Source: Acinetobacter phage BS46
Reading direction: 5' to 3' (one strand)
DNA: 64,000 nucleotides
Sequence record: MN276049.1
Positions 2,434 through 48,358 of this stretch are shown here, piece after piece. A program made the translations under genes and the position numbers. Position 1 is the first letter of the stretch. The number at the start of each line of letters is the position of its first letter. The notes beneath the pieces were generated by a model. The model searched no databases, had not been told where the DNA came from, and saw nothing but the letters and a program-made list of their open reading frames with translations.

Positions 2434-2982
2434 TCATTCTGTGTTATATTTTTGTTCAAGTTCTTTCCATGCTTCAGTTAGTATCTCCACAGAATTAGCT
2501 AATCTGTCAGCTTCTTCTCCCATATCTGCATATTCTGTTGCACACATTTTAAATGACTCTTGCAGCCCTTGTAATTCTCTCCCTTGTACACTGTCGGAGG
2601 TTTTGGTATTACTACCTTCAGTGGAACTACTCCGACTTCCGAGTTTATCGGCTTGGTTGAACAAGCGATTAAGGTTGGAATCAAGCAGATCACGAGAAGA
2701 AGAGATTTCCTCAATATCATGTTTGTGTTTCTCCTGTAACTTTAAATACTCTTTATTTAATTCATTAACCTTTCTTATTGAATTATTTTGCTCTTCAAGA
2801 AGCTTAGCAGACATATCATTCTTTAAGGAAATATAAGCGACATCTTTATCAGATAGTTTTTTCTCATAATTTCTTTTAAGACTGTCTGTGTGCATTAACA
2901 TCCCAATTAATGAGATTGCAAATACAACAATTAATATTTCACGCCATAATTTAATAAGATAAGAAAAAGCTATCATGTACAT
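2434..2982 (-). CDS. i-spanin (Rz-like): N-terminal TM anchor plus periplasmic coiled coil
   Basis: N-terminal hydrophobic helix (ILIVVFAISLIGMLM) followed by long predicted coiled-coil. A lipoprotein ORF is fully embedded in the +1 frame. Confidence 0.6.
   Translation of the reverse strand: MYMIAFSYLIKLWREILIVVFAISLIGMLMHTDSLKRNYEKKLSDKDVAYISLKNDMSAKLLEEQNNSIRKVNELNKEYLKLQEKHKHDIEEISSSRDLLDSNLNRLFNQADKLGSRSSSTEGSNTKTSDSVQGRELQGLQESFKMCATEYADMGEEADRLANSVEILTEAWKELEQKYNTE
2499..2720 (-). CDS. o-spanin (Rz1-like) outer-membrane lipoprotein, embedded in the i-spanin gene
   Basis: Signal peptide with lipobox LIAC. Pro-rich mature part (PKPPTVYKGENYKGC) with Cys residues. Entirely inside 2434..2982 in another frame. 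Confidence 0.6.
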   Translation of the reverse strand: MILRKSLLLVICLIPTLIACSTKPINSEVGVVPLKVVIPKPPTVYKGENYKGCKSHLKCVQQNMQIWEKKLTD

Positions 2983-2983
2983 T

Positions 2984-3664
2984 TTATTTTAACCTCTTCT
3001 TCAATTCTGTACGAATCATTTTAATATCTTCTTGATATAATCCTAATTCAGCCTCAAGCTCTTCTGTTGTGTAATCAGATAAATCAGCAGGTTTGTTAAC
3101 TTCGTCTAGCCTACGATTATTACGAATATTTTCACGAGCAATCAGACGTTCACGAATTTCAAAATCCTCTAAATATATCTCTTTACCATCTAATATTTTT
3201 TCAATCTCCTCTTCTGAGAGGAAGTCCTCGTAGGTCTCTCGAACAAAACGATCATTAAGACGTTTATTATGTTCTGCTCTTGTCATGATCTTATGTGTAT
3301 CATCATAACCAGTACCACAAATCATATTATGAATCATCAAACATGAATTATCATGAACACGATAACTGTGTGCAGCTTCTAAGAATAACGCACCACCAGC
3401 ACTAGCTGCCATACCAAGTAAATTCATATGGATATTTGCTTGTGTTGCTCTGATAGCATTCCTAAGAGCAATTAAACTGTATAAATTACCACCATCACTG
3501 TTAATATTAAATGTGATATGATCATCGGGTGTTGCGATACTTAAAATGTGAATAACTTCGTCAAATGTATAAGCATCACCAAAGACTTGACTCACATTCA
3601 CTGTATAATTATACCCATTAGCAGGTGTTGCGAATATCGCTGGATATTTATTTTCGTCTTGCAT
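2984..3664 (-). CDS. ClpP-family (S14) serine protease
   Basis: INSDGG, GMAASAG (Ser), MIHNM (His) and NDRF (Asp) line up with the ClpP catalytic core. Confidence 0.7.
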   Translation of the reverse strand: MQDENKYPAIFATPANGYNYTVNVSQVFGDAYTFDEVIHILSIATPDDHITFNINSDGGNLYSLIALRNAIRATQANIHMNLLGMAASAGGALFLEAAHSYRVHDNSCLMIHNMICGTGYDDTHKIMTRAEHNKRLNDRFVRETYEDFLSEEEIEKILDGKEIYLEDFEIRERLIARENIRNNRRLDEVNKPADLSDYTTEELEAELGLYQEDIKMIRTELKKRLK

Positions 3665-6826: not shown

Positions 6827-6856
6827 TTGACATTGATTTCAAAGCGGTGTTATAGT
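6827..6856 (+). promoter_or_regulatory. sigma70-like promoter
   Basis: TTGACA, 17-18 nt, TATAGT. Confidence 0.45.
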
Positions 6857-7105: not shown

Positions 7106-7187
7106 GTAGTAGTGCCTGAGAGGTCGAAAGGGACGGACTGTAACTCCGTTATATCACACGTTGGTTCGAATCCAACCTACTACACCA
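7106..7187 (+). tRNA. tRNA-Tyr (anticodon GTA)
   Basis: Manual fold: acceptor GTAGTAG/CTACTAC, anticodon stem ACGGA/TCCGT with loop CTGTAAC, T arm GTTGG-TTCGAAT-CCAAC, discriminator A, CCA encoded. Confidence 0.7.
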
Positions 7188-7191
7188 CAAT

Positions 7192-7269
7192 CGGTTGTTG
7201 AAGGGAATCGGTATACCTTCCAGTCTTAGATATTGGAGTTTCTGAGTTCGAGTCTCAGACAACCCACCA
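7192..7269 (+). tRNA. tRNA with anticodon TAG (reads CUA) but class I short variable loop
   Basis: Manual fold: anticodon stem CCAGT/ATTGG with loop CTTAGAT. T arm CTGAG-TTCGAGT-CTCAG. Acceptor 3' strand ACAACCC then A-CCA. Position 1:72 appears mismatched. Confidence 0.5.
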
Positions 7270-7496
7270 AATATCATAAGTAGTAGCACTTAACAACTAT
7301 TCGAAAGATAAAGAATAATCCCATGCGCGATTATTTTGGTGTGTTAAGTCAAAGGTTTTCCGCTACTTTAAATGCGGATTTTCAATCCTCTGTCGGTTGT
7401 CACGTACTGATGGAGGTGTTGCTTTTAAACGAGATTGGTGTGAATCATTTTCGACCTATCCCTCCATAACGTGATTGGATTCGCAATAGGTAAGCT

Positions 7497-7535
7497 GACT
7501 GCTAGGAATAGACTAGCAAACTTAGAGAAGTGAAT
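7497..7535 (+). repeat. 39-nt element GACTGCTAGGAATAGACTAGCAAACTTAGAGAAGTGAAT (copy 1)
   Basis: Exact copy again at 46850..46888. A second shared block GTTCACTTCAT(T/C)TAAGTTTA follows in both places. Confidence 0.85.
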
Positions 7536-7585
7536 TCTGATGGGGATTCTCGTTGGTTACTAGCGTTCACTTCATTTAAGTTTAT

Positions 7586-7670
7586 GCGGAGACCTGGTTG
7601 GTGTATTGAAGCAAACGACTAGTTAAGTTTGTGGATAGAGAGTGGTTTGAATCCATGTGACTCCGCTCCA
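7586..7670 (+). ncRNA. tRNA-like element (possible degenerate or class II tRNA) just upstream of the SleB-like gene
   Basis: 5' GCGGAG pairs with 3' CTCCGC followed by T-CCA. T-loop-like GGTTTGAATCC. Interior does not fold into a clean cloverleaf by eye. Confidence 0.3.
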
Positions 7671-7685
7671 GTATTAAGGTGATAT

Positions 7686-8063
7686 ATGACAAGTACGCTG
7701 ATGTGCCTGTCGTTACTAGTTTTTCATGAGGCTCGTGCTGAACCGCTAAAAGGTAAAGAAGCTGTTATTGAAGTTGTAATGAACAGGACTAAGGATTCAA
7801 GGTATCCATCAAAACCTTGTGATGTGATAAAACAGAAGTCACAGTTTAGTTGGGCAAATAATCCAAATAATTTAAAACCTCCTAAGTATGAAATAAAGGC
7901 TTGGGAAGATTCGCAGAAAGTTGCGAAAGATTATTTATCCAAACAAACAAACGGTAATTATACCAATCATACCAAAGGTGCTTTGTTTTTTAACACAAAT
8001 CGTTTAGGTGTTCGCTTTGGGAAAACATTAAAATGTAAAATCGGAAACCATGTCTTCTTTTGA
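7686..8063 (+). CDS. secreted cell-wall hydrolase, SleB/Hydrolase_2 family
   Basis: N-terminal signal-like segment. HEARAEP...AVIEVVMNRT...PCDVI...QFSW matches the Hydrolase_2 signature. Confidence 0.6.
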   Translation: MTSTLMCLSLLVFHEARAEPLKGKEAVIEVVMNRTKDSRYPSKPCDVIKQKSQFSWANNPNNLKPPKYEIKAWEDSQKVAKDYLSKQTNGNYTNHTKGALFFNTNRLGVRFGKTLKCKIGNHVFF

Positions 8064-45591: not shown

Positions 45592-46617
45592 ATGAAATAT
45601 AAAAAAGGTGATAAAGTAGAGGTTGTAGAGTTTCTTAGTTCTACAGCAGCAAGTTATGGGGTTAAAATCGGTGATATTGGTGTTGTAGCTATTGCATATG
45701 ATGTTGGTGATGGTGTTCCGTATTTTGTGAAGTTAGATGCTATCAAAACTGGTAGTAATGGTTTATGGTTTAGTGAAGAGGGTATTAAATTGGTTAAAGA
45801 AGATGGTGTTGAAAAGAAAGTTGGTGAGCTGAAAGCTGGTGATAAAGTTATTTTAACTAATGCTCGTGCTGATAATGCAAGATATTATAATTTAAAAGAA
45901 GGTATCAAAGGTACTGTACGTGAAAATGATGGTGGTACTTATAAACCTATTCTTGTTGACTTTGAGGAGGCTTCAATTTGGGTTGATGCTGGTGATTTAC
46001 AATTAGATGTTGTAGTTGAAAAAGAGAAAATTGAAACTGGTGATATTGTAAGTATTATTTCTAAGGAAAAGACCACTGATAAGTACGGTTGGTCCTGTCT
46101 TATGAAGCAGGTCGGAGAATCAATGAAAGTTGATGGTATTTATGGTGTGACTGTTGAGAATGGTATTTTTAAATATCATATTGACGATCTTGTTCTGCTT
46201 CGTAAAAGTAATGATGTTGATGAGTCTCACACAGAAAATCAAGACAAACCAGTAGACGATGCAGTTAATAAACCTAAACACTACACTTCAGATGAGAGTG
46301 GTGTTGAATGTATTGATATTACAAAGAATATGTCTTTTGTTTACGGTAATGTTTTAAAATATTGTTGGAGAGTTGGTAAGAAAGACGATGATGTTCAAGA
46401 GCTGAGCAAAGCTCTTTGGTACTCTGAGTTTGGTATTAACAATAACATTCCAATCTTTATTAGTGAAACATCTCTTGAGGATGAGAAGAATATACACAAA
46501 GTGTTAAAATTCTCAAAAGGGTGGAAGTACGTATTGTTAAATGCTATTTATTGGAATGACAAAGAAGAAGTAAATCGTGCAGTAAAAGGGCTTCTTGAGG
46601 ATATTAACATTTCTTAA
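45592..46617 (+). CDS. protein with C-terminal DUF3310-like region
   Basis: C-terminal KPKHYTSDESGVECIDIT...GNVLKYCWRVGKKDD resembles the DUF3310 signature. Confidence 0.4.
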   Translation: MKYKKGDKVEVVEFLSSTAASYGVKIGDIGVVAIAYDVGDGVPYFVKLDAIKTGSNGLWFSEEGIKLVKEDGVEKKVGELKAGDKVILTNARADNARYYNLKEGIKGTVRENDGGTYKPILVDFEEASIWVDAGDLQLDVVVEKEKIETGDIVSIISKEKTTDKYGWSCLMKQVGESMKVDGIYGVTVENGIFKYHIDDLVLLRKSNDVDESHTENQDKPVDDAVNKPKHYTSDESGVECIDITKNMSFVYGNVLKYCWRVGKKDDDVQELSKALWYSEFGINNNIPIFISETSLEDEKNIHKVLKFSKGWKYVLLNAIYWNDKEEVNRAVKGLLEDINIS

Positions 46618-46628
46618 CATTGTTATTG

Positions 46629-46657
46629 TTGACAAGGGAATTTATGTTTGCAATAAT
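46629..46657 (+). promoter_or_regulatory. sigma70-like promoter starting a 0.7-kb noncoding leader
   Basis: TTGACA, 17 nt, AATAAT. Confidence 0.45.
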
Positions 46658-46849
46658 ACTTATCTAGATTGATCGAATCTGTAGGCGATACAGCATGGCA
46701 ATATGTGGTCAGATAGTATATAAGGCGGTTGCTGCAAGCCTTGCACTTAAAATTCTGACATGCAACTATTCGCACGTTGCCGATCAATCTATTAAACAAG
46801 TGATTTATTCTGTATAGAGGATTGCTTAGGCGGTCGGTTGCTTGTTTTG

Positions 46850-46888
46850 ACTGCTAGGAATAGACTAGCAAACTTAGAGAAGTGAATA
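46850..46888 (+). repeat. 39-nt element (copy 2), identical to 7497..7535
   Basis: Exact match. Partner block GTTCACTTCATCTAAGTTTA at 47005-47026. Partial third copy CTGACTGATAGGAATAGACTA near 47232. Confidence 0.85.
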
Positions 46889-47341
46889 GCTTAGGTGCTA
46901 GAATATTGCAGTTCACATTACAATATTGAATTAATTACTCAATCGGTTAATGTGGCGGTGGGATTGATCAACCATTGTAAAATACTGTTGTATTGGTGAG
47001 TTAGATTCTCCCATGTTCACTTCATCTAAGTTTAAATTAAACTGATGATCACGTAGCTTTCGGCGTAACTAAAACCGTTGGGTTATGAAACGTTAAGTAC
47101 AAGATATTCTCGAAAGTCCAAACGCCTTGAGCGATATTACGAGATGGTGACGGGAACAATGAAAGGACAACCCCAACCCCCTACTTGCAATGTGGTATTA
47201 GCGTCAAGTCAAAATGACAAAGTGCAAGATTGTAGACTGACTGATAGGAATAGACTATCACTTTCACAATTAAAAAACGCATAAAGCGTCTATTAATATT
47301 TAAAATAAAACACAAAGAGTGTAATAATAGGAGTAAATAAA

Positions 47342-48358
47342 ATGGCTTTTAACGCATACAATACATCTACAAGTTCAGAAACTAAACCAAAAGTAACTGT
47401 CAATTTCGAAGCGCTCAATCAATACGTTATAGATACAGCAGAGTGTGAACAACCAGAAACTTTAACTGGTGTAATTTCTGCAATCGTTGATTTAGGTAAT
47501 CAAAAACAACCTGACTCAGAATATGATGTTGATGCTGGTGATGAGAATTTAACTGTTGAAGAGTTAATGGAGAAGTATAAAGATCAATTAGCATCTAACT
47601 TCCCTGATGATGAACAGTACGGTAAAATTACTAAATTCGCTAAAGCTTACGATGGTCAAAAGAAAGATTGGATTATTAAGAAATTTGTAAAGCAGAAAGA
47701 TCGTCAATCGGTTGCATTTGCTGTTGATTTCCCATCTATCCAATTAGATAAAGGTAAGTTCTTCGGTGATGATTCTGGTGAAACTAAACCATTGCGTTTA
47801 TGGTCTGGTGGTCAATTCTATAATCCTTTCCAAAAGAAAATGATTATTCAAAACCTTTTACCTTTGAAGGTTACAAACATTTCAAAAGTTGATGGTGAAA
47901 AGGTTTGGTCACTTAATCCAAAATCTGTTTTACATAAAATGGCAGTAGCAGCTAAGATTATCAAGCAAGAGGAAGCTTTCCTTCCACAAGACATTGATAA
48001 ACTTCTTGGTAAGACATTGCAATTTAAAGTTCAGATTAAGAACACAATTGGTAAAGATGGTAAGAAGTATTACACAGAGAAAATGTCTTTTGTTGGTGCT
48101 TTAGGTCGTGGTCAAAAAGAAGAGAGTGTTGATAAAGTACATTTGATTCAGTTTGATGAGGTTAACGATCAGGAGTCTTTGAAAGAATTACGTAAGCATG
48201 TAATCAATACAATTGAGAATGCTACTAACTTTGAAGGAAGTGCTATTCAAGCTCAATTACTTGAAGTTCGTCCTCAGTCTTTTATGAAGAAAGAGGAAGT
48301 TAAAGTTAAAGAGTCTGTTTTTACTGATGAAGATTTGGATGATAGTCTGCCATTCTAA
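47342..48358 (+). CDS. hypothetical protein (possibly DNA-binding/recombination-associated)
   Basis: 338-aa ORF with AGGAG RBS after a long leader; no confident motif. Confidence 0.4.
   Translation: MAFNAYNTSTSSETKPKVTVNFEALNQYVIDTAECEQPETLTGVISAIVDLGNQKQPDSEYDVDAGDENLTVEELMEKYKDQLASNFPDDEQYGKITKFAKAYDGQKKDWIIKKFVKQKDRQSVAFAVDFPSIQLDKGKFFGDDSGETKPLRLWSGGQFYNPFQKKMIIQNLLPLKVTNISKVDGEKVWSLNPKSVLHKMAVAAKIIKQEEAFLPQDIDKLLGKTLQFKVQIKNTIGKDGKKYYTEKMSFVGALGRGQKEESVDKVHLIQFDEVNDQESLKELRKHVINTIENATNFEGSAIQAQLLEVRPQSFMKKEEVKVKESVFTDEDLDDSLPF

Follow-up and report, generated by a model that had tools for sequence, protein, structure and literature searches.

Two noncoding tracts in the genome of Acinetobacter phage BS46 (MN276049.1) share a repeat that consists of two blocks, and these blocks are parts of one plus-strand RNA element: a hairpin (here called H), a long helix with a single bulged A, and an insert that is enclosed by this helix. 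The stretch of DNA that was analyzed, called the window, is 64,000 nucleotides (nt) long and has a G+C content of 34%. Tract 1 covers positions 7270-7685 (416 nt) and tract 2 covers positions 46618-47341 (724 nt); all features given below are on the plus strand unless stated otherwise. That H and the helix form a structured RNA element of the plus strand is a conclusion we hold with high confidence, because both covary and because the mismatches are G.U on that strand. Taken as a whole, the explanation that fits best is a tRNA-precursor-like RNA cassette, and from the comparisons described here we give it a probability of roughly 0.6.

The repeat forms a hairpin and a bulged helix

Block A is the 39-mer GACTGCTAGGAATAGACTAGCAAACTTAGAGAAGTGAAT, which has two exact occurrences in the window (7497-7535 and 46849-46887; 0 expected, based on 100 shuffles). 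The identity runs one base further in the 5' direction, resulting in 40 identical nt (7496-7535 and 46848-46887). Block B, GTTCACTTCAT(T/C)TAAGTTTA, follows at 7565-7584 and 47015-47034, and its two copies are identical at 19/20 bases. A first-pass annotation of this DNA had already reported the exact 39-nt duplication. Both copies are real, and the second had been placed one base off, at 46850-46888. The same annotation had block B following block A in both places, which is correct, as is its gap of about 30 nt in tract 1 (29 nt); the gap in tract 2, given as about 115 nt, measures 127 nt. A degenerate third copy had been noted near 47232. A partial copy does exist, at 47237-47260, and it corresponds to the hairpin half of block A only and not to block B; its core, CTGATAGGAATAGACTATCA at 47241-47260, has a stem in which C-G is replaced by A-T, a compensatory change. 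Scanning the window with the hairpin pattern gave 3 matches, compared to 0.06 expected. The antisense comparison of the tracts with the rest of the window gave no extended match.

Both tracts lack long open reading frames (ORFs), as had been stated: the longest encodes 48 amino acids (aa) in tract 1 and 68 aa in tract 2. With ORFs of at most 68 aa and insert lengths that are not multiples of three, coding sequence does not explain the repeats, also in agreement with the first reading of the sequence. A protein-coding gene was thus rejected, as the insert lengths vary modulo 3 and module 3, a domain of tract 2 described below, shows 1-nt indels between relatives.

In copy 1, hairpin H lies at 7496-7518 and is made up of UGAC, a stem of 6 base pairs (bp), UGCUAG/CUAGCA (7500-7505 with 7513-7518), and the loop GAAUAGA (7506-7512). 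Copy 2 lies at 46848-46870, with a stem formed by 46852-46857 and 46865-46870. The third hairpin, UGAC-UGAUAG-GAAUAGA-CUAUCA at 47238-47260, has no long helix after it. Family-wide, H consists of UGAC, a stem of 5 to 6 bp, and a GAA(U)AGA loop, and two A residues separate it from the helix. The second half of block A, AACUUAGAGAAGUGAA-U in copy 1, is the 5' strand of the long helix (7519-7535 in copy 1; 46871-46887 in copy 2, where it is seen in the fold, in RNAduplex, and with the covariance model described below), and block B is its 3' strand. The sequence AAACUUAGAGAAGUGAA, located 3' of H, is complementary to UUCACUUCAU(U/C)UAAGUUU of block B, so the helix consists of 8 bp, one bulged A on the 3' strand (7574 in copy 1 and 47024 in copy 2), and then another 8 to 9 bp. 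The insert is found at the apical end of the helix and measures 29 and 127 nt in the window and 23 to 153 nt across the family. In minimum-free-energy folds of the single sequences, blocks A and B pair with each other in both tracts, and RNAduplex returned the geometry with the fixed single bulged A in 21 of 22 copies; the 22nd (L014) is a mis-extracted 3' strand. Three flavors of the helix were found: ...AGAGAAGUGAA/UUCACUUC-A-UCUAAG (flavor one), ...UUUUAGAGAGUGAA/UUCACUCU-A-CUAAAG (flavor two), and GAGGAGUGAA/UUCACUCC-A-UCAAAG (flavor three).

The pairing is maintained while the sequence changes. In a MAFFT alignment of 20 copies, 92.6% of the cells pair, compared to 26-46% when the partners are slid, and double-sided changes are present at 3 of the 6 H pairs. 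The covariance model R2, built from this alignment of H plus helix, detects two full copies on the plus strand of the window (97.4 and 83.6 bits) as well as the third hairpin (20 bits), and only 23 and 18 bits were obtained on the minus strand. Across 69 related loci it gave 45 matches at E < 0.01. After 38 copies were aligned to R2, 96.9% of the cells pair (32-47% when slid), 13 of the 22 pairs show double-sided changes, and the covariation score is 0.351 compared to 0.157 for shuffled alignments, a value reached by 0/500 shuffles. Single-sided departures from pairing are mainly G.U on the plus strand (5 and 3 cells at two variable pairs), and one helix pair is U.G in 23/38 copies, where the other strand would read A.C. 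The L040 helix contains a compensatory 2-bp insertion, and at least nine distinct H stems, every one of them paired, are found 5' of the helix. Among the explanations that had been suggested at first, it is thus that of paralogous structured RNAs that agrees with the aligned related-phage copies: the blocks are strands of a covarying helix and a covarying hairpin within larger structured RNAs.

Shared operators for a phage regulator, or elements of a late-gene promoter, had been suggested as well. The inverted repeat of H comes after TGAC, a sequence reminiscent of a partial -35 box; some copies have an A/T-rich hexamer 16-17 bp downstream of TTGACN, and both window copies are situated upstream of gene blocks. 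However, the stem sequences change in a way that keeps the pairing and depart from it mainly by G.U on one strand, which would not be expected for a DNA site. The base before TGAC is not conserved and is a C in 2/3 window copies. The hexamer after H that would be the -10 box agrees with TATAAT at 2/6 positions, the spacer covaries as a hairpin, and the sigma-70 scan does not call the site, so that a sigma-70 promoter at H was rejected. In locus L054, a tRNA starts two bases past the A/U stretch that follows H, too close for a promoter. No common regulator gene lies beside the element across the three phage lineages in the annotated loci that were inspected. A position specifically upstream of late genes was not found either, as the elements lie in tRNA clusters and in early or middle regions of unrelated phages. 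We consider a role as operator or promoter extremely improbable.

Resemblance of the repeat to a tRNA precursor

An indication of where the element comes from was obtained with R2, which also matches positions 3420-3533 of locus L054 (38.8 bits), where hairpin H is followed by a genuine tRNA-Phe. The 5' side of this tRNA, ...AAUUUU-GG-GGAGAGG-UA..., aligns to ...AACUUA-GA-GAAGUGA-AU... of the repeat, and its 3' side, ...U-CCUUUCC-A-CC-A-AAUUU, aligns to ...U-UCACUUC-A-UC-U-AAGUUU. In this alignment the acceptor stem corresponds to the inner 7 bp of the helix, the discriminator A73 to the bulged A, and the pairing between leader and trailer to the outer helix. In this alignment, the repeat would share with tRNA precursors (RF00005) a 7-bp acceptor-like helix and an unpaired A at the discriminator place. 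As in the precursor of the L054 phage tRNA-Phe, the leader pairs with the bases at the CCA position and with the trailer, and the site lies inside tRNA clusters. At the CCA positions the repeat itself reads UCU or UUU, base-paired with the 5' leader. Some inserts contain D-arm-like or T-arm-like hairpins or even whole degenerate tRNAs; the latter are nested within the long helix in two environmental phage contigs (L036:7075-7145, 40.8 bits, and L066:2088-2154, 28.1 bits), have shortened anticodon loops, and are not called by ARAGORN. Unlike a tRNA, the repeat has no cloverleaf body and no anticodon arm, carries UCU or UUU instead of CCA, and has a helix that continues past the acceptor region. 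Because of the R2 alignment to tRNA-Phe, the geometry, and the tRNA-cluster context, we think that the repeat is probably the shell of a phage tRNA precursor in which the tRNA body has been replaced by another RNA.

The surroundings of tract 1 fit with such an origin. Tract 1 starts directly after tRNA-Leu (7192-7269), which is preceded by tRNA-Tyr (7106-7187); both were identified by ARAGORN and by the Rfam tRNA model. Tract 1 probably shares a transcript with these two tRNAs, given that a strong sigma-70-like promoter is predicted upstream of tRNA-Tyr at 6827-6856 (TTGACA-18-TATAGT with TG, 11/12 matches in the scan), and this promoter probably drives the unit of tRNAs and tract 1. The apical insert of copy 1 (7536-7564) is a short hairpin, CUGAUGGG-GAUU-CUCGUUGG, with Watson-Crick and wobble exchanges among relatives. 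Two bases after block B of copy 1, an 85-nt tRNA-like RNA begins (7586-7670). It has a 6-bp acceptor stem (GCGGAG/CUCCGC), a U at the discriminator position, an encoded CCA, and the T-arm GUGG-UUUGAAU-CCAU. Its anticodon-like arm covaries (CAAGU/ACUUG versus CAAAC/GUUUG) and carries a 10-nt loop with CUA. This RNA is present in seven related phages, where it precedes the endolysin gene or tRNA-Ile. Neither ARAGORN nor the Rfam tRNA model calls a tRNA at 7586-7670; in the window ARAGORN called only tRNA-Tyr, tRNA-Leu, and tRNA-Arg.

In AM24 and Mithridates, the order of the elements is tRNA-Tyr, flavor-two helix, module 3, H plus helix, tRNA-like RNA, and tRNA-Ile. The flavor-two helix of these phages (L112, 1261-1365, and L113, 1179-1283) occurs without H and starts 12 nt past the CCA of tRNA-Tyr, which shows that the helix does not require H.

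The 5' part of tract 1 (7270-7495) is predicted to be rich in hairpins and is kept only in the closest relatives (Ab3-TPeters and MD-2021a). It contains a terminator-like sequence at 7387-7416, mid-tract and upstream of H, with an 11-bp hairpin and a U-rich stretch, which would end some of the transcripts.

Two RNAs of phage T4, species 1 and 2 (rnaD and rnaC), are small stable RNAs that are cotranscribed and coprocessed with the phage tRNAs. Tract 1, where tRNA-Tyr and tRNA-Leu are followed by structured RNAs, resembles the T4 tRNA cluster in its arrangement. We are not aware that the T4 RNAs share the cassette of H and the bulged helix.

Tract 2 as a predicted multidomain RNA gene

Judged from its predicted parts, tract 2 is a gene for a multidomain noncoding RNA of about 620 nt, in which a promoter is followed by module 1, a linker, H plus helix (46848-47034), module 3, and the third H. 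The predicted promoter is of the sigma-70 type (46629-46657, TTGACA-17-(TG)AATAAT, 11/12 matches in the scan), and transcription would start at the first bases of module 1. A promoter precedes module 1 in 26 of 41 distinct copies, with the -10 box ending 6-7 nt 5' of P1, the closing helix of the module. Most of the promoter-less copies are those of Friunavirus, where module 1 is part of a late transcript, with capsid-side ORFs on one side and tail tubular protein A on the other.

Module 1 (46664-46795; 94.6 bits with its covariance model, R1) has its sole copy of the window in tract 2. Its layout consists of P1, AAU, P2, a hypervariable arm, and P4 (GCAAC-UAUUCGCAC-GUUGC). P2 reads CUGUA-GGCGA-UACAG in the window and CUGU(A/G)-GGCGA-(U/C)ACAG across copies. 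Among 36 distinct copies, 92.9% of the cells pair, compared to 25-45% when slid; the covariation score is 0.256 versus 0.119, and double changes are found at 13 pairs. GCGA in the P2 loop is complementary to UCGC in the P4 loop, and both are invariant in all copies retrieved. These loops could kiss and form a pseudoknot. The topology of the module is cloverleaf-like: the closing helix encloses a D-like hairpin, a hypervariable arm, and a T-like hairpin, the last of which directly adjoins this helix. The Friunavirus module (L004, 2495-2615) stands alone, with P1 extended to 17 bp and a fold z-score of -7.8.

Sequences related to parts of module 1 were seen at other sites. The hypervariable arm (46711-46764) is 83-88% identical to noncoding DNA of enterobacterial phages (L116, 1201-1254; L117, 1201-1243), namely Cronobacter ENT47670, where it lies in the gap between a Q-like antiterminator gene and the holin gene, Klebsiella KLPPOU148, and two Shigella phages; these sites have neither a tRNA nor an Rfam family. 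At the start of tract 1 (7290-7350), CAACTATTCG is common to the P4 hairpin and CCATGCGCGA is common to a variant of P2, in reversed order. The R1 search found no module 1 in tract 1, and an assignment of CAACTATTCG in tract 1 to this module was thus rejected. The region 7290-7350 may be a rearranged remnant or a module-3-like domain, as far as its sequence indicates.

The insert of copy 2 (127 nt, 46888-47014) is 94-97% identical in more than 40 Obolenskvirus genomes. A D-arm-like hairpin (AGC-UUAGGU-GCU) is found at its start and a T-arm-like one (GGUGAG-UUAGAUU-CUCCC) at its end. Module 3 follows at 47102-47236, and 12 of its 24 predicted pairs show compensatory changes. Its helix Pa is found as UCUCG/CGAGA, AGACG/CGUCU, UAGCG/CGCUA, or AUCCG/UGGAU, and the motifs CGAAAG, AAAC, AUAUUA, and CAAUGAAAG are conserved and unpaired. 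A small hairpin (ACGC-AUAA-AGCGU, 47275-47291) is located near the likely 3' end of the tract 2 RNA; the terminator scan flags it on the minus strand only. Tract 2 is colinear with a noncoding gene of Obolenskvirus, found in Abp95 (L002, approximately 2890-3430) and XC1 (L003, approximately 2860-3260), which runs from a promoter to an intrinsic terminator. In its parts and their order, tract 2 agrees with the large modular RNA of the Obolenskvirus type, and tract 1 has only H plus helix in common with it.

These domains also bear on the idea that the tracts are decaying remnants of pseudo-tRNAs that have no present function and are conserved only through recent acquisition. The elements indeed contain tRNA-like fragments, or have them nearby, that tRNA finders do not recognize, and the high identity between families is compatible with recent transfer. 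However, decay does not give compensatory changes that keep four helices (H, the long helix, module 1, and module 3) across divergent copies, nor does it explain why most copies have a promoter at a fixed distance from module 1 or why three phage lineages have kept the elements in genomes that are otherwise densely packed with genes. We consider functionless remnants very unlikely.

Distribution among Acinetobacter phages and exchange of cassettes

Searches with the noncoding tracts gave 25, 63, and 89 matching phage records, nearly all of them from Acinetobacter phages. These belong to three unrelated lineages: 45-kb Obolenskvirus myoviruses, 41-kb Friunavirus podoviruses (module 1 only), and myoviruses of about 95 kb. 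The window belongs to the last group; Phab24 is 93% identical over the replication region, and Ab3-TPeters, TaPaz, AM24, Bestia, Herod, and Mithridates are more distant relatives. When a 12-kb query was used, only 46846-47038 was common to more than 40 Obolenskvirus genomes, at 94-97% identity, and the primase/helicase identity among phages of the window lineage is about 80%. The conservation of the cassette between unrelated families exceeds that of replication genes inside a single family, which argues for a real advantage on the host. The environmental contigs that carry the elements are distant relatives of Acinetobacter phages.

Outside phages, a scan with a module 1 17-mer of one genome from each of 185,579 bacterial species resulted in 27 matches, 26 of them chance matches. 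The sole real match is a phage-like contig, CAZPYI010000001.1 (L079, 41,575 bp), which was binned with a metagenome-assembled genome (MAG) of an uncultured Streptococcus sp. This contig carries module 1, H plus helix, and module 3; its length would suit a complete genome of an Acinetobacter-type phage, and it is probably mis-binned. A search of plasmids gave no match. Scanning viral contigs with a helix 17-mer gave mostly chance matches, and the only real ones are L013 and L014.

Hairpin H and the helix arms are the places where similarity between phages stops. For 12 Obolenskvirus genomes that have other inserts, the shared part is block A alone. Ab15, Herod, and Bestia have the tract 1 module connected to the 3' part of tract 2, with the junction at H, and in Phab24, the closest relative, H is present and the helix is absent at the tract 2 locus. 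Evidently, as far as these sequences tell, cassettes have been exchanged at the conserved H and helix-arm sequences. It could be argued from these junctions, and from the 40 nt over which the window copies are identical, that the repeat is mainly a linker at the DNA level, which would allow homologous recombination to shuffle modules between coinfecting phages, with the RNA structure being secondary. A linker, however, needs identity and not pairing. H and the helix change by compensatory substitutions, with mainly G.U intermediates, the L040 helix has acquired its 2-bp insertion on both strands, and the geometry with the bulged A is kept across flavors. Moreover, recombination at any conserved element is an expected by-product. 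We therefore consider a linker as the main purpose unlikely. As pairing and not sequence is maintained across divergent copies, we regard exchange as a consequence of the conservation and not as the purpose of the repeat, a view that is again drawn from sequence comparison. The first-pass suggestion of a processing or recombination site is possible in this sense, as a function or as a by-product of the repeat.

Possible function of the cassette

If the repeat derives from a tRNA precursor, the cassette of H and helix could be a scaffold for the processing and stabilization of small phage RNAs. Host enzymes of RNA maturation would excise and stabilize the inserted RNAs and the adjacent tRNA-like RNA from polycistronic transcripts. 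In such a model, an RNase III-type enzyme would cut in the bulged helix, RNase E could cut at the A/U stretch after H, and RNase P would act on the neighboring tRNA-like RNA. The released structured RNAs may then act in trans on an Acinetobacter-specific host factor. At the R1.1-type sites of phage T7, an internal loop directs a single cut by RNase III that leaves a protective 3' hairpin. As in the leader-trailer stems of rRNA that RNase III processes, the helix brackets an RNA that would be released, and the bulged A resembles the internal loop of the T7 sites. We propose this processing and stability function tentatively, as one that falls somewhat short of even odds.

Several points weigh against the explanation that we prefer. 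The mapping to a tRNA precursor is based on one genuine tRNA (L054/L056) and on geometry, and with cmscan at E values up to 10 no tRNA besides tRNA-Leu was found in 7270-7750 or in 46550-47400. The alignment of 38 copies was fitted to the structure of the model and leans towards it, and many copies are linked by recent horizontal transfer, so that independent events are fewer than the counts of covarying cells suggest. The exact identity of the two window copies over 40 nt could be due to gene conversion at the DNA level and not to a constraint on the RNA. At 17-18 bp, the helix is shorter than a classical RNase III substrate and, unlike the stems processed by this enzyme, its sequence is much more conserved than RNase III would require, the cleavage being a predicted one; this degree of conservation would instead suggest a partner that recognizes the sequence. 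The model leaves hairpin H without a role. Finally, expression, processing, and function are, for every member of the family, what we infer from the DNA.

The conservation of the helix also leads to the main rival explanation, in which H and the bulged helix are themselves the ligand. The RNA would then act as a decoy or sponge that captures an RNA-binding protein or a nuclease of the host, and the inserts would be tolerated decoration. Possible targets include a tRNA-targeting defense nuclease or an Acinetobacter enzyme of tRNA maturation. Phage tRNA clusters are known to counter tRNA-cleaving defenses. The helix and H are conserved in sequence, while the inserts share neither sequence nor length (23-153 nt). 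The shape of the element imitates the acceptor end of a tRNA precursor, and its copies are found within the tRNA clusters of phages. It is found in phages of one host genus that belong to three unrelated lineages, with an identity above that of the core genes, and it is absent from bacterial genomes according to the module 1 17-mer scan. Against a decoy, some of the inserts are conserved or structured, such as the 127-nt insert with its 94-97% identity across families and the nested tRNA-like RNAs, and this suggests that the inserts matter. We consider a decoy doubtful and favor a scaffold.

A broader possibility is that the tracts represent a new class of large modular tRNA-derived RNAs of Acinetobacter phages, made up of exchangeable cassettes (module 1 and its hypervariable arm, H plus the bulged helix and its variable insert, and module 3). 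These would be passed on horizontally between unrelated phage families, and the RNAs would act in trans on the host. Such RNAs may be decoys against tRNA-directed immunity or takeover RNAs. We put this forward with reserve, as a possibility that is rather unlikely at present.

Comparison with known RNA families

At the gathering score, Rfam 15 contains no family for either tract. With E values up to 10, the sole non-tRNA match in both tracts was CRISPR-DR18 (15 bits, minus strand 7379-7430, E = 8.5), and the related loci gave only true or degenerate tRNAs. RNA family searches (Rfam/Infernal) had been suggested in the first-pass annotation; the search included GOLLD, ROOL, Y RNA/YrlA, transfer-messenger RNA (tmRNA), ribozymes, and CRISPR repeats, and none of these families matched. 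Keyword searches of the literature, with limited coverage, did not find a description of these RNAs. Apparently, this RNA family has not been described before, and we file the element as a tRNA-derived structured phage RNA that is not a member of a named family.

GOLLD and ROOL are large, multidomain, noncoding RNAs that are borne by phages and are often found beside tRNA genes, as described in part in PMC12286853. With about 620 nt and at least three covarying domains, tract 2 is similar to these RNAs. It differs from them in the host group, and neither tract matches their Rfam models. The cassette also resembles YrlA, in which a long helix with a conserved bulge is formed from the two ends of the RNA, in addition to a tRNA-like module. 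Unlike in YrlA, where the helix replaces the anticodon stem, the tRNA-like parts are nested inside the repeat helix, and Rfam gave no match. The annotated loci that were inspected did not show a Ro/Rsr gene context.

Other identities were rejected. H is followed by AAACUUAG, and the terminator scan calls neither H nor the long helix, so that an intrinsic terminator does not fit. The ends of a miniature inverted-repeat transposable element (MITE) or another transposon were dismissed, as there are no direct repeats beside the arms, the mismatches between the arms are mainly G.U, the bulge is fixed, and the hairpin is always 5'. H lacks the GGA motif of a CsrA site in many copies, and its resemblance to a boxB-like site is a loose one. 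For the long helix, an integron attC site, domain 6 of a group II intron, a K-turn, and a GAAA receptor were considered and do not appear to fit in sequence or geometry. A hammerhead core (CUGAUGAG) after H in locus L099 was checked and found to be unsupported.

Relevance for phage biology and annotation

Obolenskvirus, Friunavirus, and AM24/TaPaz/Phab24-like phages of Acinetobacter baumannii are under development for therapy. If the cassette counters a host defense or hijacks tRNA maturation, it would matter for host range and for how therapeutic phages are designed. These phages would also offer a lytic and genetically tractable system for asking what RNAs associated with phage tRNA clusters do, and once the tracts are recognized, the small set of known large phage RNAs would gain a new family. 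If the tRNA-derived class proves true, the acceptor-like shell would be a natural counterpart of the tRNA scaffold that is used to obtain stable recombinant RNAs. Recognition of the tracts as RNA would also correct the annotation of tiny hypothetical proteins that cover them: in GenBank records PP763256, PP171454, and PP763259 (L001, L005, and L069), strings of hypothetical proteins of 29-55 aa are annotated over the RNA tracts, and these are probably false gene calls.

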